DNA of 64,000 nucleotides from Escherichia coli. GTDB taxonomy: Bacteria; Pseudomonadota; Gammaproteobacteria; Enterobacterales; Enterobacteriaceae. The notes under the pieces were generated by a model, which saw only the letters and a program-made list of their open reading frames with translations, searched no databases and was not told the origin of the DNA. Made by a program: the position numbers and the translations under genes. Below, piece after piece: positions 5,838 to 53,670 of the stretch (its first letter is position 1; each line of letters begins with the position of its first letter). Location: assembly GCF_041886205.1 (NCBI RefSeq), contig NZ_CP169029.1. The stretch is one strand, 5' to 3'.

Positions 5838-5893
5838 GTTGGACTCTCGAAACAGAACATCAGGCCCGAGATGCGGGCCTGTGGGATGCATGA

Positions 5894-6187
5894 TTAGCCG
5901 TAGCGAAAATCAATACCGAAGGTGCCTGCGGGATATTGCCACTGTTCGAGAATAGTGTTACCGCACAGCACCCGACAGGTGCCGCACTCCAGACAACCGG
6001 CAGAATCAAAATGAATGTTGCCGGCGTCATCCTGCTTATAAAGTCCGGCAGGGCAGGCTTTCATTAATTTACGGAATTCATTGATATCGGGATTTGCCGC
6101 CAGAATGATATGCGGGTGGCCCTCATCAACATGGAATTTATTGACGCCTAATTTGATGTCGACGTTAACCGTAGCGTTCTGGCTCAT
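5894..6187 (-). CDS. ydiT: ferredoxin-like protein (FixX family)
   Basis: 97-aa ORF with Cys-rich 4Fe-4S motif; position downstream of ydiS. Confidence 0.88.
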   Translation of the reverse strand: MSQNATVNVDIKLGVNKFHVDEGHPHIILAANPDINEFRKLMKACPAGLYKQDDAGNIHFDSAGCLECGTCRVLCGNTILEQWQYPAGTFGIDFRYG

Positions 6188-11672: not shown

Positions 11673-13280
11673 CGTGATACTCCTGTTAATGAGCCGCTTC
11701 AGGCAGGACAAAACCCATCGCCGCATCGATAAATAATCTTTCGTCCATCAGTTTGAGTTCTGGCGAAATCACTGGGGTGAAATCCATTTTGTCGAGAATA
11801 TCTTTTTGTAAATCGACGCCAGGGGCGATTTCGATTAAATGCAGTCCGTCTTCTTTCAGCGTGAATACTGCGCGCTCAGTGATATAACGAACATCCAGCC
11901 CTCGCTCGAGAGCGATTTTTCCGCTAAAAGTAATTTCCGGTAGTTCCCGAATAAATTTATTTACCCGTCCTTCCTGGACGATATTCAATTTGCCGTCGGT
12001 AATTTCTGTTTTTAAACTGCCCGCAGTTAATGTGCCGCAGAAAACGATTTTCTTCGAAGTGGCACTGATATCAATAAATCCACCGGTGCCCATGATTTTA
12101 CCATTGAATTTATGCACGCCGACGTTACCGTGCTGGTCGACTTCAGCAAAACTCAAATAACAAACATCCAGACCGCCACCGTGATAAAAATCAAACTGGG
12201 ACGTCATATCCAGAATGGCGCGGGTATTCACGTTCGCGCCAAAGGCGATCCCCTGTGAAGTAATTCCGCCAATCGGACCTGTTTCTACCGTCAGAATAAA
12301 GTCATCAGCACAACCTTCTTCTCGGGCGACCAGGCCAATGCCGTCAGCAATACCGACGCCGACATTCCCCACCGCGCCTTTACGCATTTCGAATAATGCG
12401 CGCCGCGCAACTAATTTACGTTGGTTTAGGGGCAGGCTAAGTTTGGTACTGTCATCAAGGGTGAAGTCACCAGAAATAAAGCGGTTAACCGGTGCACCGC
12501 CATACAGTTGGGTTTGATCCGGATCGACCACCACAATATCCACCAGATAACCCGGAATACGGACAGATTTAGGATGCAGCGTGGCTTTCTTAACCATTTT
12601 CTGCACCTGCATCATCACAATACCGCCGTTATTGTGCACCGCCTGGGCAATAACCAATGCGTCGAGATACATCACCTCATCTTCAAAAGTGGCGTAGCCT
12701 TCGCTGTCGCAGGTGGTAGCGCGAATGAAGGCGATATCTGGCGCAATCGCTTTGTAATAGAGATATTCTTTGTTATCAAACTCGACCAGTTTAATCAGGT
12801 CTTCTTTAGTGACTTCATTCAGTTTGCCGCCTTGCTGGCGTGGATCGACAAATGTCCCGATGCCAATATCACTAATAATACCAGGCTGGTGGGCTGCGGC
12901 GGCGCGTAAGGTTTGTGTAAGTACACCTTGTGGATAGTTATAAGCAATAATTTTATTTTGTTCTGCGAGATCAGAAATACGCGGCGATTGTCCCCAGTGA
13001 CCGCATAATGCCCATTTCACCAGACCTTCTTGCGCCAGCGGACTAATACCGCGATCGGCGCGATCGCCAAGCCCTGTTGGACTAATAATCGATAAATTAC
13101 GTGGCGTTTGAGTCTGTTTATATTTATCAGCAAGAGCAGTAATTAACGTGGTGGCTTCCAGAATACCGCCGCCAGCGCCTAACACACAAAGTGTTGCTTC
13201 GTCGGGAATATAATTCACCGCTTCCGGTGATGCTGCCAACTTACTGATTTAGTGTATGATGGTGTTTTTGAGGTGCTCCA

Positions 13281-13556
13281 GTGGCTTCTGTTTCTATCAG
13301 CTGTCCCTCCTGTTCAGCTACTGACGGGGTGGTGCGTAACGGCAAAAGCACCGCCGGACATCAGCGCTATCTCTGCTCTCACTGCCGTAAAACATGGCAA
13401 CTGCAGTTCACTTACACCGCTTCTCAACCCGGTACGCACCAGAAAATCATTGATATGGCCATGAATGGCGTTGGATGCCGGGCAACCGCCCGCATTATGG
13501 GCGTTGGCCTCAACACGATTTTCCGCCATTTAAAAAACTCAGGCCGCAGTCGGTAA
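13281..13556 (+). CDS. insA: IS1 InsA (transposition inhibitor / N-terminal part of transposase)
   Basis: 91-aa [25 protein letters not shown]...; A6C frameshift motif (TTAAAAAACTC) near its 3' end. Confidence 0.9.
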
Positions 13557-13978
13557 CCTCGCGCATACAGCCGGGCAGTGACGTCATCGTCTGCGCGGAA
13601 ATGGACGAACAGTGGGGCTATGTCGGGGCTAAATCGCGCCAGCGCTGGCTGTTTTACGCGTATGACAGGCTCCGGAAGACGGTTGTTGCGCACGTATTCG
13701 GTGAACGCACTATGGCGACGCTGGGGCGTCTTATGAGCCTGCTGTCACCCTTTGACGTGGTGATATGGATGACGGATGGCTGGCCGCTGTATGAATCCCG
13801 CCTGAAGGGAAAGCTGCACGTAATCAGCAAGCGATATACGCAGCGAATTGAGCGGCATAACCTGAATCTGAGACAGCACCTGGCACGGCTGGGACGGAAG
13901 TCGCTGTCGTTCTCAAAATCGGTGGAGCTGCATGACAAAGTCATCGGGCATTATCTGAACATAAAACACTATCAATAA
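13475..13978 (+). CDS. insB: IS1 InsB reading frame (expressed as InsAB' transposase by -1 frameshift)
   Basis: 167-aa ORF recognised as IS1 InsB. Confidence 0.88.
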
Positions 13979-14202
13979 GTTGGAGTCATTACCCCGCTTC
14001 CTGTGCCGACAGGACCGGCACTCGTCCATTAATACGAGGTGGTTTTACAGGTTTCATTGTTAATTCCTGATTCAGGTGTGATTTTCCCTACGCCAGATGG
14101 AGAATTAGCGCACAGAGACTCACGAAATATTTTTATTAAATACGGTTAACTATATTTTTTTTAGTTCGGCGGGGGAGGGTATTCCCGCCGAAATATTATT
14201 GC

Positions 14203-19032: not shown

Positions 19033-19170
19033 CGTGTAATGGCTGCATGAAATAAACAATAAAATATAAATAACATTATCAGCCTGCTGACGGCTTGAAG
19101 AGAGTCACAGTATCTTGTGCAACATTATTGGAAAGAGTGAGGGGCGAGGTAGCGAAGTGGAAAAATGTTA

Positions 19171-19275
19171 AAAAAAAGCCCATCGTGGGAGATGGGCAAA
19201 GACTACACACAGCAATTCGTTGTTTCACTCAGGGGATTTCCATGCTTATAAATCAATATGTTGATTTATAACCGT
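19171..19275 (-). ncRNA. rprA: RprA small regulatory RNA (RpoS translational activator)
   Basis: Reverse complement matches the RprA sequence I recall (ACGGTTATAAATCAACATATTGATTTATAAGCATGG...CCCACGATGGGCTTTTTTT), including intrinsic terminator; coordinates +/-2 nt. Confidence 0.85.
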
Positions 19276-20961: not shown

Positions 20962-23900
20962 ATGATTCCACAGATTTCCCAGGCACCCGGCGTCGTTCAA
21001 CTGGTGCTTAATTTTTTGCAAGAGCTGGAGCAACAAGGTTTTACCGGCGATACGGCGACAAGTTATGCCGATCGTCTGACAATGTCGACCGACAACAGTA
21101 TTTACCAACTTCTCCCCGATGCGGTGGTATTTCCGCGTTCAACCGCAGATGTGGCGCTGATCGCCCGTCTTGCCGCGCAGGAACGCTATTCATCGCTGAT
21201 CTTTACCCCCCGCGGCGGCGGCACCGGCACTAACGGTCAGGCGCTCAACCAGGGGATTATTGTTGATATGTCCCGCCATATGAACCGCATCATCGAAATT
21301 AACCCTGAAGAGGGCTGGGTGCGCGTTGAGGCCGGGGTGATAAAAGATCAACTCAATCAGTACCTGAAACCGTTCGGCTACTTTTTTGCGCCGGAACTTT
21401 CGACCAGCAACCGGGCAACGCTCGGTGGGATGATCAATACCGATGCATCCGGTCAGGGATCGCTGGTCTATGGCAAAACGTCAGATCACGTACTTGGCGT
21501 ACGCGCGGTGTTGTTGGGGGGCGATATTCTCGATACGCAACCTTTACCCGTCGAATTGGCGGAAACGCTGGGTAAATCCAATACCACAATCGGGCGAATT
21601 TATAACACGGTTTATCAACGTTGCCGTCAGCAACGCCAGTTAATTATCGACAACTTCCCCAAACTTAACCGCTTTCTTACCGGTTACGATCTGCGTCATG
21701 TCTTTAACGATGAGATGACCGAGTTCGACCTGACGCGCATTCTGACGGGTTCAGAAGGGACGCTGGCCTTTATTACCGAAGCGCGGCTGGATATTACACG
21801 CTTGCCTAAAGTGCGCCGTCTGGTGAACGTCAAATATGACTCTTTTGACTCTGCGCTGCGTAACGCGCCGTTTATGGTTGAGGCGCGGGCGCTTTCGGTA
21901 GAGACGGTGGACTCAAAAGTGCTGAATCTGGCGCGGGAAGATATTGTCTGGCATTCCGTCAGCGAGTTGATTACCGATGTGCCTGACCAAGAGATGCTCG
22001 GGCTGAACATTGTGGAATTTGCTGGTGATGATGAGGCGCTGATTGATGAGCGGGTAAATGCACTCTGTGCGCGGTTGGATGAGCTGATCGCCAGTCATCA
22101 AGCAGGTGTCATCGGCTGGCAGGTGTGCCGTGAGCTGGCGGGGGTTGAACGTATCTATGCAATGCGCAAAAAAGCCGTTGGTCTGCTTGGCAATGCCAAA
22201 GGTGCCGCTAAGCCAATTCCGTTTGCTGAGGATACCTGCGTACCGCCGGAACACCTGGCGGATTATATTGCTGAATTTCGCGCGCTGCTCGACAGCCACG
22301 GCTTAAGCTACGGTATGTTCGGTCACGTCGACGCAGGTGTCTTGCACGTCCGTCCAGCGCTGGATATGTGCGATCCTCAACAAGAGATTTTGATGAAGCA
22401 AATCTCTGATGACGTGGTGGCGCTGACTGCGAAATACGGTGGTTTGTTGTGGGGCGAGCACGGCAAAGGTTTTCGCGCTGAATACAGCCCGGCGTTTTTC
22501 GGTGAGGAACTTTTTGCAGAACTGCGCAAAGTGAAAGCGGCATTTGACCCGCATAACCGACTCAACCCAGGGAAGATTTGCCCGCCAGAAGGTCTCGATG
22601 CGCCGATGATGAAAGTGGACGCGGTGAAGCGCGGTACATTCGATCGGCAGATCCCCATTGCGGTACGCCAGCAGTGGCGCGGTGCGATGGAGTGTAACGG
22701 CAACGGTTTATGCTTCAACTTTGATGCCCGTAGTCCGATGTGTCCGTCGATGAAGATCACCCAGAACCGGATTCATTCACCGAAAGGGCGCGCAACGCTG
22801 GTGCGTGAATGGCTGCGTTTGTTGGCGGATCGCGGCGTTGATCCACTCAAACTGGAACAAGAACTGCCTGAATCCGGCGTCAGTTTGCGGACGTTAATTG
22901 CCCGCACGCGCAATAGCTGGCATGCGAATAAAGGCGAATATGACTTCTCACACGAAGTCAAAGAGGCGATGTCGGGCTGTCTGGCCTGTAAAGCGTGTTC
23001 GACCCAGTGCCCCATCAAAATTGATGTGCCGGAGTTTCGCTCTCGTTTTCTGCAGCTCTATCACACCCGTTATTTACGCCCGCTGCGCGACCACCTCGTC
23101 GCTACGGTCGAGAGCTACGCGCCGCTGATGGCACGCGCGCCGAAAACCTTTAACTTCTTCATTAACCAGCCGCTGGTGCGCAAACTCTCGGAAAAACATA
23201 TCGGCATGGTTGATTTGCCGCTGCTGTCGGTCCCCTCGCTACAACAACAAATGGTGGGGCATCGCTCGGCAAACATGACGCTGGAACAGCTTGAATCTCT
23301 CAATGCAGAGCAGAAAGCGCGCACAGTGTTGGTGGTGCAGGACCCCTTTACCAGCTATTACGATGCGCAAGTGGTGGCGGATTTTGTCCGTCTGGTCGAA
23401 AAATTAGGTTTCCAGCCTGTGTTACTGCCATTTTCGCCAAATGGCAAAGCCCAGCATATTAAAGGTTTTCTTAATCGTTTTGCGAAGACGGCGAAAAAGA
23501 CGGCGGATTTCCTCAACCGTATGGCGAAGCTGGGTATGCCAATGGTGGGCGTCGATCCGGCGCTGGTACTTTGTTATCGCGATGAATATAAACTGGCGCT
23601 GGGCGAGGAGCGTGGCGAGTTTAACGTCTTACTGGCGAATGAATGGCTGGCAAGCGCACTTGAGTCACAGCCAGTGGCTACAGTCAGCGGTGAATCATGG
23701 TATTTCTTTGGTCACTGTACCGAAGTTACCGCCTTGCCGGGTGCGCCAGCACAATGGGCCGCGATATTTGCCCGTTTTGGCGCGAAACTGGAAAATGTCA
23801 GCGTGGGTTGCTGCGGCATGGCAGGGACTTACGGACATGAAGCGAAAAACCATGAAAATTCGCTCGGGATCTATGAGTTATCCTGGCATCAGGCTATGCA

Positions 23901-24018
23901 GCGACTGCCGCGTAACCGCTGTCTGGCGACCGGATATTCCTGCCGTAGCCAGGTAAAACGGGTTGAAGGCACGGGGGTACGCCATCCTGTGCAGGCTTTA
24001 CTGGAGATTATTAAATGA
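20962..24018 (+). CDS. ydiJ: FAD-linked oxidoreductase with C-terminal Fe-S / CCG domains (reported D-2-hydroxyglutarate dehydrogenase)
   Basis: 1018-aa ORF; FAD-binding PCMH domain N-terminal, Cys clusters C-terminal. Confidence 0.9.
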   Translation: MIPQISQAPGVVQLVLNFLQELEQQGFTGDTATSYADRLTMSTDNSIYQLLPDAVVFPRSTADVALIARLAAQERYSSLIFTPRGGGTGTNGQALNQGIIVDMSRHMNRIIEINPEEGWVRVEAGVIKDQLNQYLKPFGYFFAPELSTSNRATLGGMINTDASGQGSLVYGKTSDHVLGVRAVLLGGDILDTQPLPVELAETLGKSNTTIGRIYNTVYQRCRQQRQLIIDNFPKLNRFLTGYDLRHVFNDEMTEFDLTRILTGSEGTLAFITEARLDITRLPKVRRLVNVKYDSFDSALRNAPFMVEARALSVETVDSKVLNLAREDIVWHSVSELITDVPDQEMLGLNIVEFAGDDEALIDERVNALCARLDELIASHQAGVIGWQVCRELAGVERIYAMRKKAVGLLGNAKGAAKPIPFAEDTCVPPEHLADYIAEFRALLDSHGLSYGMFGHVDAGVLHVRPALDMCDPQQEILMKQISDDVVALTAKYGGLLWGEHGKGFRAEYSPAFFGEELFAELRKVKAAFDPHNRLNPGKICPPEGLDAPMMKVDAVKRGTFDRQIPIAVRQQWRGAMECNGNGLCFNFDARSPMCPSMKITQNRIHSPKGRATLVREWLRLLADRGVDPLKLEQELPESGVSLRTLIARTRNSWHANKGEYDFSHEVKEAMSGCLACKACSTQCPIKIDVPEFRSRFLQLYHTRYLRPLRDHLVATVESYAPLMARAPKTFNFFINQPLVRKLSEKHIGMVDLPLLSVPSLQQQMVGHRSANMTLEQLESLNAEQKARTVLVVQDPFTSYYDAQVVADFVRLVEKLGFQPVLLPFSPNGKAQHIKGFLNRFAKTAKKTADFLNRMAKLGMPMVGVDPALVLCYRDEYKLALGEERGEFNVLLANEWLASALESQPVATVSGESWYFFGHCTEVTALPGAPAQWAAIFARFGAKLENVSVGCCGMAGTYGHEAKNHENSLGIYELSWHQAMQRLPRNRCLATGYSCRSQVKRVEGTGVRHPVQALLEIIK

Positions 24019-24425
24019 TATGGAAACGGAAAATCACCCTGGAAGCACTGAATGCTATGGGTGAAGGAAACATGGTGGGGTTCCTGGATATTCGCTTTGA
24101 ACATATTGGTGATGACACCCTTGAAGCGACAATGCCAGTAGACTCGCGGACAAAGCAGCCTTTCGGGTTGCTGCATGGAGGAGCATCCGTGGTACTGGCC
24201 GAAAGTATCGGTTCCGTTGCCGGTTATTTATGTACCGAAGGTGAGCAAAAAGTGGTTGGTCTGGAAATCAATGCTAACCACGTCCGCTCGGCACGAGAAG
24301 GGCGGGTGCGCGGCGTATGCAAACCGTTGCATCTCGGTTCGCGTCACCAGGTCTGGCAGATTGAAATCTTCGATGAGAAAGGGCGTTTGTGCTGTTCGTC
24401 ACGATTGACGACCGCCATTTTGTGA
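24015..24425 (+). CDS. menI: 1,4-dihydroxy-2-naphthoyl-CoA hydrolase (hotdog-fold thioesterase)
   Basis: 136-aa ORF recognised as YdiI/MenI; start overlaps ydiJ stop. Confidence 0.9.
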   Translation: MIWKRKITLEALNAMGEGNMVGFLDIRFEHIGDDTLEATMPVDSRTKQPFGLLHGGASVVLAESIGSVAGYLCTEGEQKVVGLEINANHVRSAREGRVRGVCKPLHLGSRHQVWQIEIFDEKGRLCCSSRLTTAIL

Positions 24426-24713: not shown

Positions 24714-24937
24714 TCCTGACTTAATGCCGCAAGTTCGCCAAATCGACCTGGATTAACCTCCGTCCAGGTTCGATGACCTTCTTAATACTGCTTATCTACC
24801 GCCTGATATTGTTCAAAAATAATACTAATCGCAGTTTGTGTTAAAACGGCGGGTTAGCTTTATGAGATTATTCTTATCGCCCCTTCAAGAGCTAAGCCAC
24901 TGAGAGTGCCGGAGATAAGCGCCGGATGGGGTAGAAA

Positions 24938-24980
24938 CCCTTAAGCCTGTGTCGCACAGACTTAAGGGTTTTCTTATTTC
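24938..24980 (+). terminator. strong intrinsic terminator hairpin (CCCTTAAGCCTGTG…CACAGACTTAAGGG) followed by TTTTCTTATTT; possible 3' end of sRNA RydB
   Basis: Perfect inverted repeat plus U-tract seen in sequence, about 225 nt downstream of the ydiH stop. Confidence 0.6.
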
Positions 24981-27134: not shown

Positions 27135-27881
27135 ATGTTAAGTATTAAAGATTTACACGTTAGCGTGGAAGATAAAGCTATCCTGCGCGGATTAAGCCTC
27201 GACGTTCGTCCCGGCGAAGTTCACGCCATTATGGGGCCAAACGGTTCGGGCAAAAGTACCTTATCGGCAACGCTTGCCGGGCGCGAAGATTATGAAGTGA
27301 CGGGCGGCACGGTTGAGTTCAAAGGCAAAGATTTGCTTGCACTGTCGCCGGAAGATCGTGCAGGCGAAGGCATCTTTATGGCCTTCCAGTATCCGGTGGA
27401 GATTCCAGGTGTCAGTAACCAGTTTTTCCTGCAAACGGCACTTAATGCGGTGCGCAGCTATCGCGGCCAGGAAACGCTCGACCGCTTTGATTTTCAGGAT
27501 TTGATGGAAGAGAAAATCGCTCTCCTGAAGATGCCGGAAGATTTATTAACCCGTTCGGTAAACGTTGGTTTTTCCGGCGGCGAGAAAAAGCGCAACGATA
27601 TTTTGCAAATGGCGGTGCTGGAACCGGAGTTATGCATTCTTGATGAGTCGGACTCCGGGCTGGATATTGACGCATTAAAAGTGGTCGCCGATGGCGTGAA
27701 CTCGCTGCGTGATGGCAAGCGCTCATTCATCATTGTTACGCACTACCAACGCATTCTCGACTACATCAAGCCTGATTACGTTCATGTGCTATATCAGGGA
27801 CGAATTGTGAAATCCGGCGATTTCACGTTGGTCAAACAACTGGAGGAGCAGGGTTATGGCTGGCTTACCGAACAGCAGTAA
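27135..27881 (+). CDS. sufC: Fe-S cluster assembly ATPase SufC
   Basis: 248-aa ORF with Walker A GPNGSGKST. Confidence 0.95.
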   Translation: MLSIKDLHVSVEDKAILRGLSLDVRPGEVHAIMGPNGSGKSTLSATLAGREDYEVTGGTVEFKGKDLLALSPEDRAGEGIFMAFQYPVEIPGVSNQFFLQTALNAVRSYRGQETLDRFDFQDLMEEKIALLKMPEDLLTRSVNVGFSGGEKKRNDILQMAVLEPELCILDESDSGLDIDALKVVADGVNSLRDGKRSFIIVTHYQRILDYIKPDYVHVLYQGRIVKSGDFTLVKQLEEQGYGWLTEQQ

Positions 27882-29127
27882 CGCGCTGCAACAGTGGCAT
27901 CACTTGTTTGAAGCTGAAGGGACAAAACGCTCCCCGCAAGCACAGCAGCATTTACAACAATTGCTGCGTACCGGACTGCCGACACGTAAACATGAAAACT
28001 GGAAATATACGCCGCTGGAAGGGCTGATCAATAGCCAGTTTGTCAGCATTGCGGGAGAGATATCCCCACAGCAGCGTGATGCCTTAGCGTTAACGTTAGA
28101 CTCCGTGCGGCTGGTGTTTGTCGATGGGCGTTACGTGCCCGCACTGAGCGATGCAACTGAAGGCAGCGGATATGAAGTGAGCATTAACGACGACCGTCAG
28201 GGTTTACCCGACGCTATTCAGGCGGAAGTGTTTCTGCATTTGACGGAAAGCCTGGCACAAAGCGTGACGCATATCGCCGTGAAGCGCGGTCAACGGCCGG
28301 CAAAGCCATTGCTGTTAATGCATATCACCCAGGGCGTGGCAGGTGAAGAGGTGAACACTGCCCATTACCGACATCATCTGGATCTGGCGGAAGGTGCCGA
28401 AGCAACGGTGATCGAACATTTTGTCAGCCTGAATGATGCTCGTCATTTTACCGGGGCACGGTTCACTATCAACGTCGCAGCGAATGCCCACTTGCAGCAT
28501 ATCAAGCTGGCGTTTGAAAACCCGCTCAGTCACCACTTTGCTCATAACGATTTGTTGCTGGCTGAGGATGCCACCGCATTTAGCCACAGTTTCCTGCTGG
28601 GTGGCGCAGTGTTACGACACAACACCAGTACGCAACTCAATGGCGAAAACAGCACGCTGCGGATCAATAGCCTGGCGATGCCGGTGAAAAACGAGGTGTG
28701 TGATACCCGTACCTGGCTGGAACACAATAAAGGTTTTTGTAACAGCCGACAGTTGCACAAAACTATCGTCAGCGACAAAGGCCGCGCGGTATTTAACGGT
28801 TTGATCAACGTCGCGCAGCACGCCATCAAAACGGATGGTCAGATGACCAACAACAATCTGCTGATGGGCAAACTGGCGGAAGTGGATACGAAACCGCAGC
28901 TGGAAATCTATGCAGATGATGTGAAATGCAGCCACGGCGCGACGGTGGGGCGTATTGATGATGAACAGATATTCTATCTGCGCTCGCGCGGGATCAATCA
29001 GCAGGATGCCCAGCAGATGATCATTTACGCCTTCGCTGCCGAACTGACGGAAGCACTGCGTGATGAGGGGCTTAAACAGCAGGTGCTGGCCCGAATCGGT
29101 CAACGGCTGCCAGGAGGTGCAAGATGA
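27856..29127 (+). CDS. sufD: Fe-S cluster assembly protein SufD
   Basis: 423-aa ORF; start overlaps sufC 3' end. Confidence 0.93.
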
Positions 29128-30344
29128 TTTTTTCCGTCGACAAAGTGCGGGCCGACTTTCCGGTGCTTTCGCGTGAGGTAAACGGTTTGCCGCTGGCTTA
29201 TCTCGACAGCGCCGCCAGTGCGCAGAAACCGAGCCAGGTGATTGACGCCGAGGCCGAGTTTTATCGTCATGGCTACGCGGCGGTGCATCGTGGTATTCAT
29301 ACCTTAAGCGCCCAGGCGACCGAGAAAATGGAGAACGTGCGCAAGCGGGCATCGCTGTTTATTAATGCCCGTTCGGCGGAAGAGCTGGTGTTCGTCCGCG
29401 GCACGACGGAAGGGATCAATCTGGTCGCCAATAGCTGGGGCAACAGCAACGTGCGGGCGGGCGATAACATCATCATCAGTCAGATGGAGCACCACGCTAA
29501 CATTGTTCCCTGGCAGATGCTTTGCGCACGCGTTGGCGCAGAGCTGCGTGTGATCCCGCTCAATCCCGATGGTACGTTGCAACTGGAGACGCTGCCTACG
29601 CTGTTTGATGAGAAAACTCGCCTGCTGGCAATTACTCATGTCTCCAACGTGCTTGGCACAGAAAATCCACTGGCGGAAATGATCACGCTTGCGCACCAGC
29701 ATGGCGCAAAAGTGCTGGTGGATGGCGCTCAGGCGGTGATGCATCATCCGGTGGATGTTCAGGCGCTGGATTGCGACTTTTACGTGTTCTCCGGGCATAA
29801 ACTGTATGGCCCCACCGGAATTGGCATTCTTTATGTGAAAGAAGCCTTGTTGCAGGAGATGCCGCCGTGGGAAGGGGGCGGTTCTATGATCGCCACCGTC
29901 AGCCTGAGTGAAGGCACTACCTGGACCAAAGCACCATGGCGGTTTGAAGCCGGTACACCCAATACCGGGGGCATCATTGGTCTTGGCGCGGCGCTGGAGT
30001 ATGTTTCGGCGCTGGGGCTTAATAACATAGCCGAGTATGAACAGAATCTGATGCATTACGCGCTATCACAGCTGGAATCTGTACCGGATCTCACTCTCTA
30101 TGGCCCACAAAACAGGCTTGGCGTTATTGCTTTTAATCTCGGTAAACACCACGCCTATGATGTTGGCAGTTTTCTCGATAATTACGGCATTGCTGTGCGT
30201 ACCGGACATCACTGCGCTATGCCATTAATGGCCTATTACAACGTCCCTGCGATGTGTCGGGCGTCGCTGGCCATGTATAACACCCATGAAGAAGTGGATC
30301 GTCTGGTGACCGGATTGCAACGTATTCACCGTCTGCTGGGATAA
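29124..30344 (+). CDS. sufS: cysteine desulfurase SufS
   Basis: 406-aa ORF, class-V aminotransferase fold; start overlaps sufD stop. Confidence 0.95.
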
Positions 30345-35170: not shown

Positions 35171-37920
<2,750 letters not shown>

Positions 37921-37923
37921 GGA

Positions 37924-38571
37924 ATGGGTAAGATGAACCATCAGGATGAATTGCCGTTAGCGAAAGTCAGCGAAGTTGACGAGGCGAAGCGGCAATGGTT
38001 GCAGGGGATGCGTCACCCCGTTGATACGGTAACCGAACCAGAACCTGCTGAAATCCTGGCTGAGTTCATTCGCCAGCATTCTGCGGCTGGGCAGCTGGTG
38101 GCGCGCGCCGTGTTTCTCTCGCCACCCTATTTGGTTGCAGAAGAGGAACTGTCAGTTTTGCTGGAAAGCATTAAGCAGAACGGAGACTACGCGGATATCG
38201 CTTGTTTGACGGGAAGCAAGGATGATTACTATTACTCAACGCAGGCCATGAGTGAAAACTACGCGGCGATGTCTTTGCAAGTTGTGGAGCAGGACATTTG
38301 TCGCGCCATTGCACACGCCGTTCGTTTTGAGTGCCAGACGTATCCTCGTCCTTACAAAGTCGCCATGCTGATGCAAGCGCCATATTACTTCCAGGAAGCG
38401 CAGATTGAAGCCGCGATCGCCGCGATGGATGTTGCACCTGAATATGCCGATATACGGCAGGTGGAGTCATCGACGGCGGTGTTGTACTTGTTTAGCGAGC
38501 GATTTATGACCTATGGCAAGGCTTATGGCTTATGCGAATGGTTCGAGGTAGAGCAGTTTCAGAACCCCTGA
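37924..38571 (+). CDS. ydhW: uncharacterised protein YdhW
   Basis: 215-aa ORF in operon position between ydhV and ydhX. Confidence 0.82.
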   Translation: MGKMNHQDELPLAKVSEVDEAKRQWLQGMRHPVDTVTEPEPAEILAEFIRQHSAAGQLVARAVFLSPPYLVAEEELSVLLESIKQNGDYADIACLTGSKDDYYYSTQAMSENYAAMSLQVVEQDICRAIAHAVRFECQTYPRPYKVAMLMQAPYYFQEAQIEAAIAAMDVAPEYADIRQVESSTAVLYLFSERFMTYGKAYGLCEWFEVEQFQNP

Positions 38572-38634: not shown

Positions 38635-39303
38635 ATGTCCTTCACTCGACGCAAATTTGTTCTGGGGATGGGAACAGTAATCTTTTTTACTGGTTCTGCG
38701 TCTTCTCTGTTAGCGAACACGAGGCAAGAAAAGGAAGTTCGGTATGCCATGATTCATGACGAGTCACGGTGCAATGGCTGTAATATTTGCGCCCGCGCAT
38801 GCCGTAAAACTAACCACGTCCCCGCTCAGGGAAGCCGTTTATCGATAGCACACATTCCAGTCACCGATAACGACAACGAAACGCAGTATCACTTTTTTCG
38901 CCAGTCATGTCAGCACTGCGAAGATGCTCCGTGCATCGACGTTTGCCCGACGGGGGCATCGTGGCGTGATGAGCAGGGGATCGTGCGGGTAGAAAAATCG
39001 CAGTGCATCGGCTGCAGTTATTGCATTGGCGCTTGTCCGTACCAGGTTCGCTACCTTAACCCTGTCACTAAAGTGGCAGATAAATGTGATTTCTGCGCTG
39101 AGTCCCGGCTGGCAAAAGGCTTTCCGCCCATTTGCGTCAGCGCTTGTCCGGAACACGCATTGATCTTTGGTCGCGAAGATAGCCCAGAAATTCAGGCGTG
39201 GTTGCAGGAAAATAAATACTATCAATATCAGCTACCTGGTGCCGGGAAACCGCATCTGTATCGCCGGTTCGGTCAACATTTGATTAAAAAGGAAAATGTA
39301 TGA
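38635..39303 (+). CDS. ydhX: 4Fe-4S ferredoxin-like protein (Tat signal)
   Basis: ORF 38584..39303; start chosen at MSFTRRKFVLGMGT giving 222 aa; four Cys clusters. Confidence 0.85.
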   Translation: MSFTRRKFVLGMGTVIFFTGSASSLLANTRQEKEVRYAMIHDESRCNGCNICARACRKTNHVPAQGSRLSIAHIPVTDNDNETQYHFFRQSCQHCEDAPCIDVCPTGASWRDEQGIVRVEKSQCIGCSYCIGACPYQVRYLNPVTKVADKCDFCAESRLAKGFPPICVSACPEHALIFGREDSPEIQAWLQENKYYQYQLPGAGKPHLYRRFGQHLIKKENV

Positions 39304-40085
39304 ACCCGTCGCAACATGCTGAACAGTTTCAGAGCCAGTTAGCGAACTATGTGCCACAGTTCACTCCCGAATTTTGGCCGGTGTGGTTGATCATTGCCGG
39401 AGTATTGCTGGTTGGGATGTGGTTGGTGCTGGGGCTGCACGCCTTGCTTCGTGCTCGTGGCGTGAAGAAATCAGCCACCGATCATGGTGAGAAGATTTAT
39501 CTTTACAGCAAAGCGGTCAGATTATGGCACTGGTCGAATGCGTTACTCTTTGTATTGTTGCTGGCAAGTGGGCTGATAAATCACTTTGCGCTGGTGGGCG
39601 CAACTGCGGTCAAAAGTCTGGTTGCGTTGCATGAAGTTTGCGGATTTTTGTTACTCGCATGCTGGCTCGGCTTTGTGCTGATCAATGCTGTTGGGGGTAA
39701 TGGTCACCACTATCGCATTCGTCGTCAGGGGTGGCTGGAACGAGCGGCAAAACAAACGCGATTTTATTTGTTTGGCATTATGCAGGGGGAAGAACATCCT
39801 TTCCCGGCAACAACCCAGTCTAAATTTAATCCCTTACAGCAGGTCGCCTATGTTGGTGTCATGTATGGATTGCTGCCGTTGTTACTATTGACGGGGCTGC
39901 TGTGTCTCTATCCGCAAGCCGTGGGAGATGTGTTTCCTGGCGTAAGATACTGGTTATTGCAGGCGCATTTTGCTCTGGCATTTATAAGCCTCTTTTTTAT
40001 CTTCGGTCATCTTTATCTTTGCACCACGGGGCGTACGCCACACGAAACCTTTAAAAGCATGGTCGATGGCTATCACCGGCACTAA
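39300..40085 (+). CDS. ydhU: cytochrome b-type membrane subunit (PhsC/NrfD-like)
   Basis: 261-aa polytopic ORF; start overlaps ydhX stop. Confidence 0.85.
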   Translation: MNPSQHAEQFQSQLANYVPQFTPEFWPVWLIIAGVLLVGMWLVLGLHALLRARGVKKSATDHGEKIYLYSKAVRLWHWSNALLFVLLLASGLINHFALVGATAVKSLVALHEVCGFLLLACWLGFVLINAVGGNGHHYRIRRQGWLERAAKQTRFYLFGIMQGEEHPFPATTQSKFNPLQQVAYVGVMYGLLPLLLLTGLLCLYPQAVGDVFPGVRYWLLQAHFALAFISLFFIFGHLYLCTTGRTPHETFKSMVDGYHRH

Positions 40086-40088: not shown

Positions 40089-40901
40089 ATGATCATTACA
40101 CGAGCAGACCTGCGAGAATGGCGTATCGGAGCGGTGATGTATCGCTGGTTCCTGCGCCATTTCCCACGCGGCGGTAGTTATGCCGATATTCATCATGCAC
40201 TGATTGAGGAAGGATATACGGACTGGGCGGAGAGTCTGGTTGAGTATGCGTGGAAAAAATGGCTGGCGGATGAAAACTTCGCGCATCAGGAAGTTTCCTC
40301 TATGCAAAAACTGGCCACAGACCCCGGAGAGATACCATTTTGCAGTCAGTTTGCCCGCAGCGACGATCATGCTCGCATCGGCTGTTGTGAGGATAACGCC
40401 CGAATCGCAACCGCTGGGTATGCCGCGCAAATTGCCAGTATGGGTTATAGCGTGCGGATTGGAAGTGTCGGCTTTAACAGTCACATTGGCAGCTCCGGTG
40501 AACGCGCACGGGTTGCTGTAACCGGTAATTCTTCGCGGATAAGCAGCGCTGGAGATAGTAGTCGGATTGCGAACACCGGAATGCGAGTACGCGTTTGTAC
40601 ATTGGGTGAACGGTGTCATGTCGCCAGTAATGGTGACCTGGCGCAAATCGCCAGCTTTGGCGCAAACGCCAGAATTGCCAACAGCGGCGACAATGTACAC
40701 ATCATTGCCAGCGGTGAAAATTCAACGGTTGTGAGCACGGGCGTGGTCGACTCAATTATTCTCGGGCCAGGGGGAAGCGCCGCACTGGCATATCATGACG
40801 GCGAAAGAGTTCGCTTCGCCGTCGCCATTGAAGGTGAAAACAATATTCGAGCCGGAGTCCGCTATCGTCTTAATGAACAGCATCAGTTTGTTGAGTGCTG
40901 A
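40089..40901 (+). CDS. ydhT: uncharacterised protein with about 13 tandem 9-residue repeats
   Basis: 270-aa ORF; repeats with the pattern xRIxxxGxx visible in the translation. Confidence 0.85.
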   Translation: MIITRADLREWRIGAVMYRWFLRHFPRGGSYADIHHALIEEGYTDWAESLVEYAWKKWLADENFAHQEVSSMQKLATDPGEIPFCSQFARSDDHARIGCCEDNARIATAGYAAQIASMGYSVRIGSVGFNSHIGSSGERARVAVTGNSSRISSAGDSSRIANTGMRVRVCTLGERCHVASNGDLAQIASFGANARIANSGDNVHIIASGENSTVVSTGVVDSIILGPGGSAALAYHDGERVRFAVAIEGENNIRAGVRYRLNEQHQFVEC

Positions 40902-40912
40902 TAGCTTTACCT

Positions 40913-42517
40913 TTAATCAAACGAAAGACGCCGACGTGCACGGGATGCAGGTTTTACGACCGCCCGAGCCATCGCCTCACCAATTTCTGCACATGCCGTA
41001 AGTCCCTGAACGAAAGGCTGGTCGTGCATCAACCAGGGCAACGCGCCGAACGCTACGCGTCCACGAATATCTTCGGGTTGCTGTAACGTATAATCTTCGC
41101 CAACATCAGGGATTTCATCCCCTGTTTTCTGTAATTGCTCGCGTAGCCCAGGGAAAGGAATATCTTTCACTTTAAGCGGACGCTGTCCGCGGGCATCAAT
41201 AAAAACGTCAAACGAGTAGCTGTTGTCTTCCGTTTTCAGGACGGTGCGCGACTCATTAATTTCCATTTCGTAGTCTTCACCGAGGGCGAGAATATGAATG
41301 ATCCCCGCTTCACGTAAGGCCAGCAGCCGACGAATAGACTCTGAAGGGATTGCCGCATAATTATCGATAAAAACCCGGGTAAGGCCTTTACTGAACCGTT
41401 TATGGTCGTGTTCATTCAGATGTGGAACAATTTCCTGTACGGCTTCATGCAGGCGCAGAATGACATAACGCCAGGGAACAGTATGTTTTTCTCGTTTATT
41501 GCGTTCGACTTCCTGGAGATTTTTTTCTGCCCAGTCAAATGGGTCGCGTTGTTTGCGCTCGGCAAACCAGGCTTGAGCAAAGGAATCGACATTCAGGCTC
41601 TCTAAGGCTATGCGTTGGCTCCAGTCTGGATCAGCAAACTTGATTTCCTCTACTATCAATCTAAATACCCGATCCAAAAGGCCCTCTTCGCCTTTTTGAA
41701 TCTCAGCATTTAATGCCTGATCGGTGACAATGTGTAAGGACTCGTAGGGAATAGGGCAATAGAAATCGGCTTCGGGTAAAATACCCGTGCGCGACATCAA
41801 CGTGATATTTAGCTTTTCACTTGCGTTATCGCGGTGAAAAACGACGTGTTGTTTATCATCTTCAATGAACGAACCATGCTGAATAGCCACTGCCATTGCC
41901 GCATCCAGTCCGCTCAAGGATGTTCCCATAATACCCACGTTACACGCATCGACCTTTGCTTCCATCAGGCCTGACCACGGGCTGGGAAAATACGTTCGGG
42001 TTGCTTCTTCTTCATCAGGCCAGACGTGACCCGTGGCAATCACCGCTAAATCAAACGTCTCGCTGGGTAAACCCTGATTTGTAGCGAGCATGACGCCAGC
42101 ATTTGTAATTTGCAGATCGGTAACCTGGCATGATTCATAAACAGCCACTGCAAATTTTTGCTTTCGTGCCTGGTCTACTAATCGTAAAAATTGATCGCGG
42201 AAATATTCGCCCAGCAGAATTCGCGGTAAAAACTGACGATCGTGCAAGGTTTCTTTTTTAACGCCATAACGCTGGAGATGGCTGGCTTCTTGCTTTTGTA
42301 GCCATTCGAGATACGTACAATTAATCGGCGGTATTTCAATACTGGCAATATTTGCCAGCATCATTTTTGAGTTTTCCTCATCACTGTATGGCATCCCGAC
42401 ACCGGCCTCGTCAGCCTGCTCGAAGATAGAAATAGAAAGTGGAGTTTGTTGCTGTAGAAGCGAGAATAAGGTGTAGATCCCCGTAGGCCCGGCACCCACA
42501 ATAGCAATTTTTTTCAT
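40913..42517 (-). CDS. ydhS: FAD/NAD(P)-binding protein
   Basis: 534-aa ORF with N-terminal GAGPTG dinucleotide-binding motif. Confidence 0.88.
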   Translation of the reverse strand: MKKIAIVGAGPTGIYTLFSLLQQQTPLSISIFEQADEAGVGMPYSDEENSKMMLANIASIEIPPINCTYLEWLQKQEASHLQRYGVKKETLHDRQFLPRILLGEYFRDQFLRLVDQARKQKFAVAVYESCQVTDLQITNAGVMLATNQGLPSETFDLAVIATGHVWPDEEEATRTYFPSPWSGLMEAKVDACNVGIMGTSLSGLDAAMAVAIQHGSFIEDDKQHVVFHRDNASEKLNITLMSRTGILPEADFYCPIPYESLHIVTDQALNAEIQKGEEGLLDRVFRLIVEEIKFADPDWSQRIALESLNVDSFAQAWFAERKQRDPFDWAEKNLQEVERNKREKHTVPWRYVILRLHEAVQEIVPHLNEHDHKRFSKGLTRVFIDNYAAIPSESIRRLLALREAGIIHILALGEDYEMEINESRTVLKTEDNSYSFDVFIDARGQRPLKVKDIPFPGLREQLQKTGDEIPDVGEDYTLQQPEDIRGRVAFGALPWLMHDQPFVQGLTACAEIGEAMARAVVKPASRARRRLSFD

Positions 42518-42903
42518 TGTTACTTACCTGTACGCATTCTTTCGAATTTAGTGTTATCAGATAAGTTTGGTTGAGATTTTTAGAATTTGAGAAATTTCAG
42601 ACAGGGATGAAAAGGGCGCTAACCGCCCTTGATTAAATTCTGTCAGGCGAGTTTTGCCTGATTGATTTGACTCAGTGGCTCATTGACATCGAAAACTTTG
42701 GCGACAACTTCCTCAACGCCGAGATTTTTAAGTCGGGCAGTATGTTTTTCCAGATAGGCAAGGGCGCTTTTTTCATCAGTAAAAAGATAGATCCCACCGG
42801 CTTCGTGGTTCTTTTCACTTTCTGTCCATACCTTCCACAGAAAACCAGGTTCCTGATTAATTGAACCGCCCCGGGTTTCCTGGAGAGTGTTTTATCTGTG
42901 AAC

Positions 42904-43794
42904 TCAGGCTGCCAGATCATCGTTTCCGATGGAAGCATAATAAGCTTTTTCTGCTTCTGCCGGAGGAGTATGGCCCAGCCTTTCCAGCAATCGTCGATTG
43001 TTATACCAGTCCACCCACGTGAGTGTGGCCAGTTCCACTTCTGCACGGTTTTTCCAGCTCTTACGGTGTATTACCTCCGCTTTGTAAAGACCATTGATGC
43101 TCTCCGCCATCGCGTTGTCATACGAGTCGCCTGTACTTCCTGTTGATGCCAGTAATCCGGCTTCCTTAAGCCGCTGTGTGTAGGCCAGCGATACATACTG
43201 AGAACCTTTATCACTGTGATGGACCGTGCCGGACGGTCGACGGGCCCATAACGCCTGCTCCAGTGCATCCAGCACGAATGTCGTTTCCATGGACGATGAG
43301 ACCCGCCACCCCACGATGTATCCGGCAAACACATCAATGATGAACGCCACATAGACGAAGCCCCGCCATGTGCTGACGTAAGTAAAATCAGCCACCCACA
43401 GCTGGTCAGGTCGTTCTGCCACGAACTGACGGTTTACGCGGTCGCCTGCGGCAACGGCTTTCCGGCTGATGGTCGTACGGACCTTTTTACCCCGGAGAAC
43501 ACCGGCAAGTCCCATAACCGCCATGAGACGTGCCACAGTGCATCTGGCCACTCTGATACCTTCCCGTAACAACTGACGCCAGACTTTACGCACACCGTAT
43601 ACCTTGTGATTTTCATCGTATACGCGCTGTATCTCTTTCTTCAGCCAGTCATCGCGCTGCGCACGGGCACTGCGTTTATCCGGATGATGTCGCTGTTGCT
43701 GACAGTGGTAATACGTTGACGGGGCAATATGCAGTTCGCTGCATAGCGGTCCGACCCCGTACTGCTCACGCAGCTTATCCAGCAGTGGCATCAT
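42904..43794 (-). CDS. IS3-family transposase OrfB (DDE integrase core)
   Basis: 296-aa ORF; overlaps orfA 3' end at an A-run consistent with -1 frameshifting. Confidence 0.88.
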
Positions 43795-44117
43795 TTTTTC
43801 CAGAGGCGGTCGAACTCCGCCTTCGCAAAATAAGCGGAAGCCTGGCGAAGGATATCGTTACTGCGGCGCAGTTCACGATTTTCACGTTCCAGCTCTTTCA
43901 GACGCTGACGTTCAGCGGTGGTGAGCCCTCCATCACCGCCCCCGGTATCCCGCTCATGCTGGCGAACCCAGACACGCAGAGTCTCCGGCGTACAGCCAAT
44001 CTTTGGAGCAATGGAACAAATTGTCGCCCATTGTGAGTCATATTCGCTCTGACTTTCCAGAACCATACGGACTGCCCGTTGACGGACTTCGGGGGAAAAA
44101 CGAGTATTTTTAGTCAT
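43791..44117 (-). CDS. IS3-family transposase OrfA (HTH)
   Basis: 108-aa [26 protein letters not shown]... Confidence 0.88.
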
Positions 44118-44368
44118 CCTGTTTACCTCTTTCTCAGGAAGTTTAGTCTCCAGGATTCCCGGGGCGGTTCAAATCGACTCAGCAAGCGGTTTAAGCTGCT
44201 CAGCCATTGCGTCGCCAAATGGGCCATTAAAAGCAAAATGAAGTTGTAACAAAGTTGCCATAGCGATTCTCCTTCTGATAACGCATACGAAGACAGTGTA
44301 AATCTTTTAACGTATTGGATACAGAGAAGAAACAGAGGGAAAAAGGAGAAGACCAGATTAAGAAAATC

Positions 44369-44445
44369 TGGTGCGTCCGAGTGGACTCGAACCACCGACC
44401 CCCACCATGTCAAGGTGGTGCTCTAACCAACTGAGCTACGGACGC
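44369..44445 (-). tRNA. valW: tRNA-Val (GAC anticodon)
   Basis: Reverse complement reads GCGTCCGTAGCTCAGTTGGTTAGAGCACCACCTTGACATGGTGGGGGTCGGTGGTTCGAGTCCACTCGGACGCACCA; valV/valW assignment by position; +/-1 nt. Confidence 0.9.
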
Positions 44446-53117: not shown

Positions 53118-53161
53118 TCCATTTCACTCCAGACCCTAACTTCAGCTCCTGCAAAATCGCA

Positions 53162-53177
53162 AGGTAAACGTTTGCCT
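53162..53177. promoter_or_regulatory. PurR operator-like palindrome (AGGCAAACGTTTACCT) in the purR leader
   Basis: Match to PurR box core about 45 bp upstream of the purR start codon. Confidence 0.6.
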
Positions 53178-53505: not shown

Positions 53506-53670
53506 TTTCCTCTCGAGGGAGCGCGTTCTCCCTCGCATCTCCTTCCTGTTTGTTAGCAAAATGGCAAAAGTGTTTTCTCTTTTTGTTATTTTCATTTTTT
53601 TGTGATTGCTGTCATGCTTTCGCCACTTTAATGAATATCGCGTAATGACGCGAAGAGGTGGAGATAAGGC

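Follow-up and report, generated by a model that had tools for sequence, protein, structure and literature searches.

Translation across short gene overlaps has been studied in native E. coli pairs spaced at −4 nt, four of the five tested pairs (hyfHI, astDB and ydbH/ynbE, as well as menDH) being translationally coupled, usually in a manner dependent on the Shine–Dalgarno (SD) sequence, and the remaining pair, bioBF, initiating de novo and showing no coupling (Huber et al. 2019; PMC6728339). With growing distance, coupling falls off over some 20 nt (PMC10666635). Precedents for coupling across much longer overlaps come from the coat/lysis junctions of the phages fr and MS2, which overlap by 38 and 50 nt (PMC12548453). 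Convergent overlaps of 4 nt, in the form of a CTAA, TTAA, CTAG or TTAG tetramer, originate from mutated stop codons (Lillo and Krakauer 2007; PMC2174442). At the level of transcripts, purR–punR belongs to the 165 convergent excludons found by ExcludonFinder in at least 50% of 58 MG1655 transcriptomes (PMC12288877).

Here we compare with these systems the gene overlaps of a 64,000-nt stretch of E. coli-type chromosome (the window), which runs from aroH through the suf operon and purR to lhr. All 48 annotated coding sequences in the window are intact. Overlap coordinates were cross-checked between the list of open reading frames (ORFs), the RefSeq annotation of a 99.9%-identical genome and the raw sequence, and all three agree. 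The initial annotation had listed six overlaps, namely sufC/sufD (26 nt), sufD/sufS, ydiS/ydiT, ydiJ/menI and ydhX/ydhU (4 nt each) and the convergent pair punR/purR (4 nt), and every one of them is present at exactly the length given there. They amount to five of the 30 same-strand pairs and one of the nine convergent pairs in the whole window, and no other annotated pair overlaps. Four pairs lie at exactly −4 and none at adjoining negative spacings, a pattern that is the well-known non-random ATGA peak. The share of window pairs spaced within −8 to +6 nt (5/30) is not above the E. coli genome average of 24% (707/2987; PMC10666635). The best explanation of the data as a whole is that the six overlaps are genuine, correctly annotated and of an ordinary bacterial kind, a reading to which we assign a probability of about 0.8.

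The coordinates under which the overlaps had been filed, 27856–29127, are those of sufD only, the other junctions lying elsewhere in the window. One further 4-nt overlap between ORFs, absent from the initial list, occurs between orfA and orfB of an IS3-family element (43791–43794, minus strand). It resembles the other overlaps of the window in length but differs from them in serving a programmed −1 frameshift that yields a fusion transposase, with no coupling; this status is flagged by a match to the ALIL pseudoknot (Rfam RF01497) and by the annotation ‘programmed frameshift’. ALIL is one of seven Rfam 15 covariance-model matches in the window, the others being STnc550, RprA, HPnc0260, rydB and two tRNAs; none of the matches coincides with an overlap junction or with the purR 3′ hairpin described below.

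Co-directional junctions and their start codons

The features of the five co-directional junctions are as follows.

6184–6187, minus strand: ATGA overlap of ydiS (6184–7473) and ydiT (5894–6187), from ORFs, annotation and sequence
24015–24018, plus strand: ATGA overlap of ydiJ (20962–24018) and menI (24015–24425), from ORFs, annotation and sequence
27135–27881, plus strand: sufC, Fe–S assembly ATPase and upstream partner, from ORF, RefSeq annotation and intact coding sequence
27842–27848, plus strand: SD GGAGGAG of sufD, within the sufC codons L-E-E (anti-SD duplex −9.3 kcal/mol)
27856–27881, plus strand: dual-coding overlap of sufC and sufD, from the sufD ATG to the sufC TAA, 26 nt
27856–29127, plus strand: sufD, 423 aa, from the first start of its ORF
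29112–29117, plus strand: SD AGGAGG of sufS, in the 3′ end of sufD (−11.6 kcal/mol)
29124–29127, plus strand: stop/start overlap ATGA of sufD and sufS, from sequence
29124–30344, plus strand: sufS, 406 aa, from the NCBIfam SufS model, PDB chain length and periodicity
39300–39303, plus strand: ATGA overlap of ydhX (38635–39303) and ydhU (phsC; 39300–40085), from ORFs, annotation and sequence

RBS spacing and N-terminal conservation had been proposed as checks on the start codons, and the annotated starts are borne out. None of their ORFs offers an earlier start, and every one of the five downstream genes carries its SD inside the upstream coding sequence. Anti-SD duplex energies of the five annotated starts range from −5.6 to −11.6 kcal/mol (AAGGGAG of ydiT, −7.6; CTGGAG of menI, −6.4; ydhU, −5.6), and downstream alternatives are weak. 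The homologous ATG is kept in 81/81 genomes for sufD, 79/81 for sufS and 52/52 for menI, and neither sufD nor sufS has a universally conserved alternative start. Coding periodicity begins immediately after the annotated start in sufD (from codon 10), sufS (codons 2–13, 0.41/0.31/1.32) and menI (codons 2–14, 0.40/0.36/1.24). The NCBIfam models cover residues 1–422 of 423 in SufD and 1–406 of 406 in SufS, in line with PDB chains of 423 aa for SufD and 406 aa for CsdB/SufS. Residues 5–97 of YdiT align to positions 3–95 of the 95 in the FixX model, and both YdiT and YdhU have full-length homologues.

These observations bear on the suggestion, raised as grounds for refutation, that at least one true start lies further downstream and that the corresponding overlap is unreal. 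The case for it comes from menI, where in-frame Met codons occupy positions 20 and 40 (52/52 genomes each) and 15 (49/52) and where a generic hotdog-thioesterase domain model begins only at residue 19, and from ydhU, whose PhsC model begins at residue 11. Against this, the MenI model and that of the paralogue EntH both align from MenI residue 1, as the SufD and SufS models do from theirs, the periodicity directly after the ATG of sufD, sufS and menI is of the coding type, and the next in-frame starts of ydiT (codon 42) and ydhU (codon 18) would lose conserved sequence and have a weak or absent SD. Together with the conserved ATGs, these results make a mis-annotated start most improbable, and we regard that reading as already largely refuted.

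The geometry of the junctions is widely conserved. Spacing is −26 in 81/81 Enterobacteriaceae sequences for sufC/sufD, −4 in 79/81 Enterobacteriaceae loci for sufD/sufS and −4 in 50/52 loci for ydiJ/menI; the ydiS/ydiT ATGA is kept in Salmonella, Brenneria and Desulfitobacterium and that of ydhX/ydhU in Leminorella and Proteus, these last two assessments covering five contigs only, as the SufD- and purR-centred loci do not reach them. By comparison, the non-overlapping suf junctions drift, mostly between 9 and 19 nt for sufB/C and between 8 and 15 nt for sufS/E.

Overlap had also been taken as consistent with stoichiometric co-expression of complex subunits, an interpretation that fits the pairs in part. 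SufC and SufD are the only documented complex pair, with solved SufC–SufD and SufBCD structures in the PDB; the complex is SufBC2D, in which C and D stand at 2:1 rather than 1:1. The other four pairs (sufD–sufS, ydiJ–menI, ydiS–ydiT and ydhX–ydhU) are entered as ‘no complex’ in a curated catalogue. By homology, ydiS–ydiT (FixC/FixX-like) and ydhX–ydhU (PhsB/PhsC-like) are plausible complex pairs.

Translational coupling or fixed geometry

Comparison with the pairs of Huber et al. 2019, in which coupling was measured, suggests that translational coupling is likely to be the mechanism at these co-directional junctions. The four ATGA junctions resemble those pairs in sequence, sharing the identical tetramer, an SD in the upstream gene and the organism itself, and they likewise sit in apparent operons; unlike those pairs, most of them are not known complex partners. 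They also fall within the range of about −8 to +6 nt (NTGA motif) demanded of the termination–reinitiation class. From spacing only, we infer that each pair is carried on one transcript; for the suf operon, polycistronic transcription is known. Under this mechanism, a ribosome ending the upstream gene would re-initiate at the nearby start, or the terminating ribosome would keep the initiation region unfolded, and synthesis of the downstream protein would thus be tied to that of the upstream one.

The sufC/sufD junction, at −26, lies outside the termination–reinitiation range, and coupling there would call either for re-initiation at a start 26 nt back from the stop or for initiation de novo at GGAGGAG. 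This SD is near-invariant across 79–81 Enterobacteriaceae loci, third codon positions of sufC included. Third-position entropy of sufC in the overlap is 0.154 bit, a value not undercut by any other of 241 windows, where the gene as a whole averages 1.00; no part of sufC is under stronger synonymous constraint than the SD together with the overlap. It is the sole junction of the five with predicted local mRNA structure (z = −2.7), predicted in a region too uniform in sequence for a covariation test; at the four ATGA junctions, structure does not exceed that of shuffles (z −1.5 to +2.1). The closest precedent for such an arrangement is the long-overlap coupling of phages fr and MS2, in which, as here, the downstream start lies well before the upstream stop and a strong SD and a local hairpin, predicted in our case, cover the start region. 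The difference is that sufC and sufD lie on a chromosome and encode two components of a single complex, with no phage lysis gene involved. A full-text literature search returned no report of translational coupling for sufC/sufD and nothing useful on ribosome profiling of sufABCDSE. Spacing of −26 is rare among E. coli pairs, yet this instance has already been catalogued.

The same junctions may instead be frozen accidents, having originated as stop or start codons mutated and the genome became compact, with the downstream genes initiating independently on their own SDs and the overlaps kept since changes hit two proteins. An overlap, once formed, is locked in because any change damages both proteins, and conserved geometry is therefore not proof of coupling, selection on the two proteins being enough to fix it. 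The strong SDs of sufS and sufD could support independent initiation, bioBF is a native E. coli −4 pair without coupling, and about 70% of E. coli pairs at close spacing do not encode complex subunits, nor are four of the five co-directional pairs of the window known to do so. Two features of the junctions themselves point the same way: the four ATGA junctions lack significant predicted mRNA structure, and the 3′ end of sufD carries no synonymous constraint beyond that of the protein itself (rank 137/419). The SD in sufC, by contrast, is kept at synonymous sites beyond the needs of the upstream protein, as to a lesser degree is that in ydiJ, where the menI SD is invariant at ydiJ synonymous sites and the last five codons rank 63/1014 for synonymous constraint. 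Moreover, most native −4 pairs tested are coupled, coupling drops steeply with distance, and a ribosome terminating at ATGA covers the downstream start, so that some interplay is unavoidable. Taken together, we consider independent initiation throughout rather unlikely, and coupling the likely mechanism.

The convergent punR/purR junction

The initial annotation had singled out the convergent overlap as less usual and as implying overlapping 3′ UTRs. Its features are listed below.

52043–52044, minus strand: 3′ end of the purR mRNA, from Term-seq (MG1655 1738907/8; PMC7815308 supplementary file 1), mapped onto the window
52056–52085, minus strand: hairpin of the purR 3′ UTR, doubling as the punR coding tail (codons for ..LREPEETPA..); 12-bp stem, −23.2 kcal/mol, z = −6.3
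52092–52095, both strands: shared-stop tetramer TTAA of punR (51163–52095, plus strand) and purR (52092–53117, minus strand)

In the tetramer, a TAA stop on one strand meets a TAA stop on the other: punR encounters no stop codon of its own ahead of purR, and it terminates at the TAA provided by the complement of the purR stop. Among 86 distinct Enterobacterales junctions, in which punR stops were located by anchoring on the EW codons, spacing is −4 in 32 (with TTAA, TTAG or CTAG) and +16 to +19 in another 32, and spacings of +6 and of further lengths also occur. In the inspected cases of the +16 to +19 group, the punR stop lies in or at the loop of the hairpin, and the chief difference among relatives is the presence or absence of a stop codon in the loop of this conserved hairpin. 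Beyond EWL, both the length and the sequence of the PunR tail are variable. Both states, with and without a loop stop, are widespread, and the change could have been a loss or a gain. The earlier stop in relatives, the poorly conserved extension and the permitted tetramers TTAA, TTAG and CTAG are the features of overlaps formed by stop-codon mutation as described by Lillo and Krakauer 2007, and the convergent overlap has another origin than the co-directional ones. It departs from their overlaps in that the alternative punR stop is located in the loop of a conserved hairpin, and a switch between overlapping and non-overlapping states thus leaves the stem undisturbed.

The hairpin is kept in 51 relatives with differing stem sequences and compensatory pairs. 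Covariation was assessed by folding each sequence and by a chimera test, since the MAFFT alignment is not structure-aware; native arms were more stable than chimeric ones (−20.9 against −17.2 kcal/mol), in a test whose sequences are related and whose p-value is therefore no true probability. Across taxa, neither strand is preferred in stability (25 vs 25), and in E. coli the purR-sense form is clearly the stronger. The purR mRNA ends 48 nt past the stop codon, 12 nt after the hairpin stem and antisense to punR/ydhB, so that its entire 3′ UTR runs antisense to punR, across the final 17 codons of that gene. The hairpin has the stable G+C-rich stem-loop of an intrinsic terminator. The U-rich tract 3′ of it is absent, the tail reading CACUCCUUAUUC, and the RNA 3′ end falls 12 nt after the stem where about 7–9 would be expected; a consensus terminator and promoter scan around punR/purR returned no site at the junction and weak sites only inside purR. 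On these three grounds the hairpin is not classed as a canonical intrinsic terminator, and it is possibly a 3′-stabilising element.

As to the overlapping 3′ UTRs, for which 3′-end mapping had been proposed, the expectation is borne out for purR by Term-seq (PMC7815308), and transcription of the two genes overlaps according to the RNA-seq excludon list (PMC12288877). The Term-seq data report no 3′ end for punR (PMC7815308), and the TERMITe supplements hold no entry for purR. The excludon list includes the neighbouring pair ydhS–ydhT as well as purR–punR; in comparison with its excludons, only the purR 3′ end is mapped for punR/purR.

A stronger reading would make punR/purR a functional excludon, in which antisense transcription across the shared 3′ region, acting through RNA polymerase collision or RNase III duplex cleavage, would set the purine repressor and the activator of purine-nucleoside uptake in putative mutual antagonism. 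Its presence on the convergent list and the antisense purR 3′ UTR are consistent with this, as are the punC–punR–purR arrangement conserved in Enterobacteria (PMC8376909) and the short spacing, which is at most 19 nt in all eight genomes examined individually and at most 32 nt in most of the 86 junctions. Overlap length nevertheless varies (−4, +6, +16 to +19 and more) without obvious consequence, and E. coli has 58 convergent CDS overlaps besides the 165 such transcript overlaps, numbers that make overlap in itself weak evidence of function. We therefore consider a functional excludon unlikely, and an ordinary convergent overlap remains our preferred reading.

More speculative still, and quite improbable in our estimation, is that the purR/punR hairpin is a regulatory device beyond a passive 3′ end or, as a weaker second candidate, that the sufC/sufD overlap is tuned. 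If the former held, ribosomes finishing punR would melt the punR-sense hairpin, depending on whether punR stops in the loop or its ORF continues through the stem, the latter being the E. coli state, punR transcription would run antisense into purR, and purine-nucleoside uptake, through activation of punC by PunR, would be linked inversely to synthesis of the PurR repressor. If the latter held, the invariant sufC/sufD overlap and SD would give partial reinitiation that sets the 2:1 ratio of SufC to SufD.

Meaning for E. coli and the Enterobacteriaceae

The overlaps are real, ordinary and already known, and constitute no discovery. A published catalogue for K-12 already lists the five co-directional distances, and published data sets likewise contain the purR–punR transcript overlap and the 3′ end of purR. 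Among co-directional E. coli genes, no spacing is more frequent than the short stop/start overlap, and its occurrence here matters little. The useful outcome is a negative one: the annotation is sound and a new explanation is unneeded. For specialists, two details are added, namely that the sufC/sufD overlap and its SD are invariant in Enterobacteriaceae and form the most synonymously constrained part of sufC, and that translation of the 3′ half of the conserved hairpin in the purR 3′ UTR supplies E. coli PunR with its C-terminal tail.

Gene overlaps and sequence context

The window matched the RefSeq-annotated E. coli strain LHM10-1 at 99.9% identity from aroH to lhr, the exceptions being two insertion sequences and, towards the right end, a breakpoint. 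Several complete E. coli genomes carry the 5 kb surrounding the finding at 100% identity, and 5,424 of 5,426 contain it. When the RefSeq annotation of LHM10-1 was carried over to the window, each of the 48 coding sequences transferred proved intact, with proper start and stop codons; ydhY (35171-35797), annotated as frameshifted in LHM10-1, is intact here, a 1-nt indel separating the two. ORFs, annotation and sequence bore out all six overlaps listed in the initial annotation, at the lengths it gave:

Overlapping gene pairs in the window
sufC 27135-27881 (+) / sufD 27856-29127 (+), 26-nt overlap
sufD 27856-29127 (+) / sufS 29124-30344 (+), ATGA overlap
ydiS 6184-7473 (-) / ydiT 5894-6187 (-), ATGA overlap
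ydiJ 20962-24018 (+) / menI 24015-24425 (+), ATGA overlap
ydhX 38635-39303 (+) / ydhU (phsC) 39300-40085 (+), ATGA overlap
punR 51163-52095 (+) / purR 52092-53117 (-), convergent, TTAA overlap giving TAA on both strands

The interval originally assigned to them, 27856-29127, covers sufD and nothing else, the remaining junctions lying elsewhere in the window. In a table of all adjacent pairs, overlaps occurred in 5/30 same-strand and 1/9 convergent pairs and in none of the others; as no further overlap appeared, the list is complete. The four pairs at exactly -4 (negative spacing denotes overlap length) fall in the familiar, non-random ATGA peak, and the density in the window, with 5/30 pairs within -8 to +6, is not above the E. 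coli average of 24% (707/2,987; PMC10666635). Two extra near-abutting junctions may exist, depending on the true starts: ydiT-fadK spacing is 2 nt in the K-12 catalogue, a curated gene-pair table (fadK start 5891, 566-aa ORF; PMC10666635), versus 56 nt in RefSeq PGAP, and ydhV-ydhW spacing is 3 versus 12 nt, with source-dependent starts at 5837-5894 and 37920-37933. The longest sufB ORF (ATG 25599) would overlap sufA by 31 nt and was rejected in favour of the conserved annotated start at 25638, 8 nt after sufA, where a homologous ATG is found in 76/76 loci with both genes.

An IS1 at 13230-13993 (insA 13281-13556, insB 13475-13978), absent from LHM10-1, interrupts ydiF at its 5' end and leaves the gene truncated relative to that strain. 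A 1,310-bp IS3-family element resembling IS629/IS1203 (42862-44171) interrupts ydhR with a 3-bp target duplication, an arrangement covered by only 10 of 5,426 complete E. coli genomes. Its orfA (43791-44117, -) and orfB (42904-43794, -) overlap by 4 nt; this was rejected as a coupling junction, since an ALIL pseudoknot (Rfam RF01497, 43720-43836) marks it as a site of programmed -1 frameshifting. Colinearity with E. coli stops inside lhr, which is cut short at 61508. The terminal 48 nt of the phage Mu right end recur at 61513-61560 with 100% identity, 61561-61627 had no match in E. coli or phage collections, and from 61628 follow yniB, yniA, a RefSeq-annotated ghoS gene (probably ydiZ) and pfkB. 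In another strain the yniB-pfkB genes lie about 20 kb beyond the window's opposite end, on the same strand. The 61508-61628 junction is present in none of the complete E. coli genomes of the collection; it may have arisen by duplication or translocation with a lone Mu end, from an engineered mini-Mu, or as a chimera of the assembly. No Rfam family matched at any overlap junction; matches above gathering score elsewhere were:

Rfam matches in the window
19168-19275, RprA
24879-24939, rydB sRNA, between ydiH and sufA
44245-44407, HPnc0260 antisense RNA, adjoining the tRNA-Val pair
53118-53508, STnc550, purR-cydH intergenic region and cydH

Start codons and conserved geometry

The five downstream genes of the co-directional pairs start where annotated and not at a later codon, the alternative that the initial annotation had raised. 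In all five the annotated start is the first possible one of the ORF, with Shine-Dalgarno (SD) match energies of -9.3 (sufD), -11.6 (sufS), -7.6 (ydiT), -6.4 (menI) and -5.6 kcal/mol (ydhU), and SD matches at in-frame alternatives further downstream are mostly weak or absent. NCBIfam models align from residue 1 in SufD, SufS and MenI, the FixX model aligns to YdiT from model position 3, and the PhsC model begins at residue 11 of YdhU, ahead of codon 18, where the next possible start lies. MenI also aligns with its paralogue EntH from residue 1, and solved structures used identical full-length proteins. A SufD scan taking one genome per species yielded 80 Enterobacteriaceae loci (73-97% identity), among which the homologous ATG was found in 81/81 sufD, 79/81 sufS and 52/52 menI sequences, with no universal alternative start for sufD or sufS. 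Just after the starts, variation is concentrated at third codon positions as in coding sequence, the entropies for positions 1/2/3 being 0.40/0.36/1.24 (menI codons 2-14), 0.41/0.31/1.32 (sufS codons 2-13) and 0.46/0.41/1.18 (sufD codons 10-30).

Overlap geometry was similarly stable: sufC/sufD spacing was -26 in 81/81 sequences, sufD/sufS -4 in 79/81 and ydiJ/menI -4 in 50/52, and the non-overlapping suf junctions varied, mostly within 9-19 nt for sufB/sufC and 8-15 nt for sufS/sufE. The ydiS/ydiT ATGA is retained in Salmonella, Brenneria and the firmicute Desulfitobacterium, and that of ydhX/ydhU in Leminorella and Proteus. In Brenneria izadpanahii (L213, 1-1604) the ATGA upstream of ydiT is present with no ydiS called, the frame there being open for 170 codons only, which may represent a decaying ydiS. 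Across sufC, third-position entropy has a mean of 1.00 bit; of 241 windows the final eight codons score lowest, at 0.154, and the 13-codon stretch that takes in the SD GGAGGAG also ranks lowest. Synonymous sites at the menI SD inside ydiJ are invariant and the last five ydiJ codons rank 63/1,014 for constraint, while the sufD 3' end showed no constraint beyond the protein's own (rank 137/419). Such exact conservation is expected of any overlap, because a change there harms two genes; it therefore argues more for two real reading frames than for coupling.

Subunit co-expression and translational coupling

The complex containing SufC and SufD is SufBC2D, a composition for which equal synthesis of the two is not what is needed. 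The reading of these overlaps as consistent with stoichiometric co-expression of complex subunits is fair as a generality, complex partners making up 30% of closely spaced E. coli pairs versus 7% of distant ones, and is firm for one of the five pairs: the K-12 catalogue, which already holds all five at identical distances, lists only sufC-sufD (-26) as a complex, and sufD-sufS, ydiJ-menI, ydiS-ydiT and ydhX-ydhU (all -4) as not (PMC10666635).

Direct tests of native E. coli -4 pairs found termination-reinitiation coupling in four of five, usually SD-dependent, which required no more than the 3'-terminal 15-99 nt of the upstream gene and collapsed when the stop was shifted 14-38 nt away (PMC6728339, PMC10666635). 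On this precedent, coupling is probable at the four ATGA junctions of the window. They showed no predicted mRNA structure beyond shuffled controls, which fits reinitiation better than structure unmasking. The sufC/sufD overlap lies outside the -8 to +6 class and recalls the long coat/lysis overlaps of phages fr and MS2, coupled across -38 and -50 nt (PMC12548453). Its junction combines a strong SD with a modestly significant predicted local fold (z = -2.7) that would bring the AUG and stop regions into pairing; sufD could be translated by backward reinitiation, through unfolding, or simply by de novo initiation. A literature search for coupling measurements on the suf, ydi and ydh pairs found none. 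Judged by their sequence, the five co-directional overlaps belong to the ordinary class of overlapping operon genes, with the geometry and SD of that class.

The convergent punR/purR junction

For punR/purR the initial annotation proposed overlapping 3' UTRs, to be checked by strand-specific 3'-end mapping, and published Term-seq of MG1655 answers that check: two data-set entries give a primary purR 3' end at 1738907/8, flagged as antisense to punR under its former name ydhB (PMC7815308 supplementary file 1). In window coordinates this end is 52044/52043; on the purR strand the stop lies 48 nt and a hairpin 12 nt upstream of it, which places the entire purR 3' UTR inside the last 17 punR codons.

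Hairpin at the purR 3' end
52056-52085, purR-sense (-), 12-bp stem, -23.2 kcal/mol, z = -6.3

Because its tail (CACUCCUUAUUC) is not a U-tract and a consensus scan reported no terminator there, the label of canonical intrinsic terminator was rejected; a 3'-protective hairpin is equally possible. purR-punR is on the ExcludonFinder list of convergent transcripts that overlap in half or more of 58 MG1655 transcriptomes, as is the neighbouring ydhS-ydhT (PMC12288877); here ydhT (+) and ydhS (-) converge 11 nt apart (40901-40913). Published data yielded no punR 3' end or functional test of the junction.

Seven other Enterobacterales genomes retain the order punC-punR-purR, the spacing being +19 in Kosakonia, +6 in a record that carries the label Salmonella, and -4 in the other five (Citrobacter, Cedecea, Serratia, Erwinia and a further lineage). 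Metagenome sequences were also scanned, from an anchor in the C-terminal codons of purR instead of the junction, which brought the total to 86 distinct junctions, 32 at -4 (TTAA, TTAG or CTAG), 32 at +16 to +19 and the rest scattered. PunR is conserved to the motif ..EWL, beyond which its tail varies in length and sequence. The 30-40 nt that separate EWL from the purR stop fold, in most of the Enterobacteriaceae-like sequences, into a G+C-rich hairpin. Its arms are lineage-specific in sequence and keep their complementarity, with compensatory pairs at several stem positions (G-C/A-T, A-T/C-G/G-C, G-C/A-T/T-A); native halves gave -20.9 versus -17.2 kcal/mol for chimeric ones, a contrast whose significance is overstated as the sequences are related. 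Neither strand is consistently more stable across taxa. In the +16 to +19 cases inspected the punR stop lies in or at the loop, whereas in -4 junctions, including that of E. coli, the loop lacks a stop and punR continues across the 3' arm, ending at a stop that the complement of purR's own stop provides. This matches the origin by stop-codon mutation that has been proposed for convergent 4-nt overlaps (58 E. coli convergent overlaps; PMC2174442). The punR/purR pair belongs to a known class of 4-nt stop/stop overlaps, and its transcripts are among the convergent overlaps already published.

That the shared purR/punR hairpin is regulatory, or that the invariant sufC/sufD overlap sets a ratio, seems very improbable. 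Collectively, the six overlaps are correct and ordinary, all of known kinds, and their specific facts are already tabulated.
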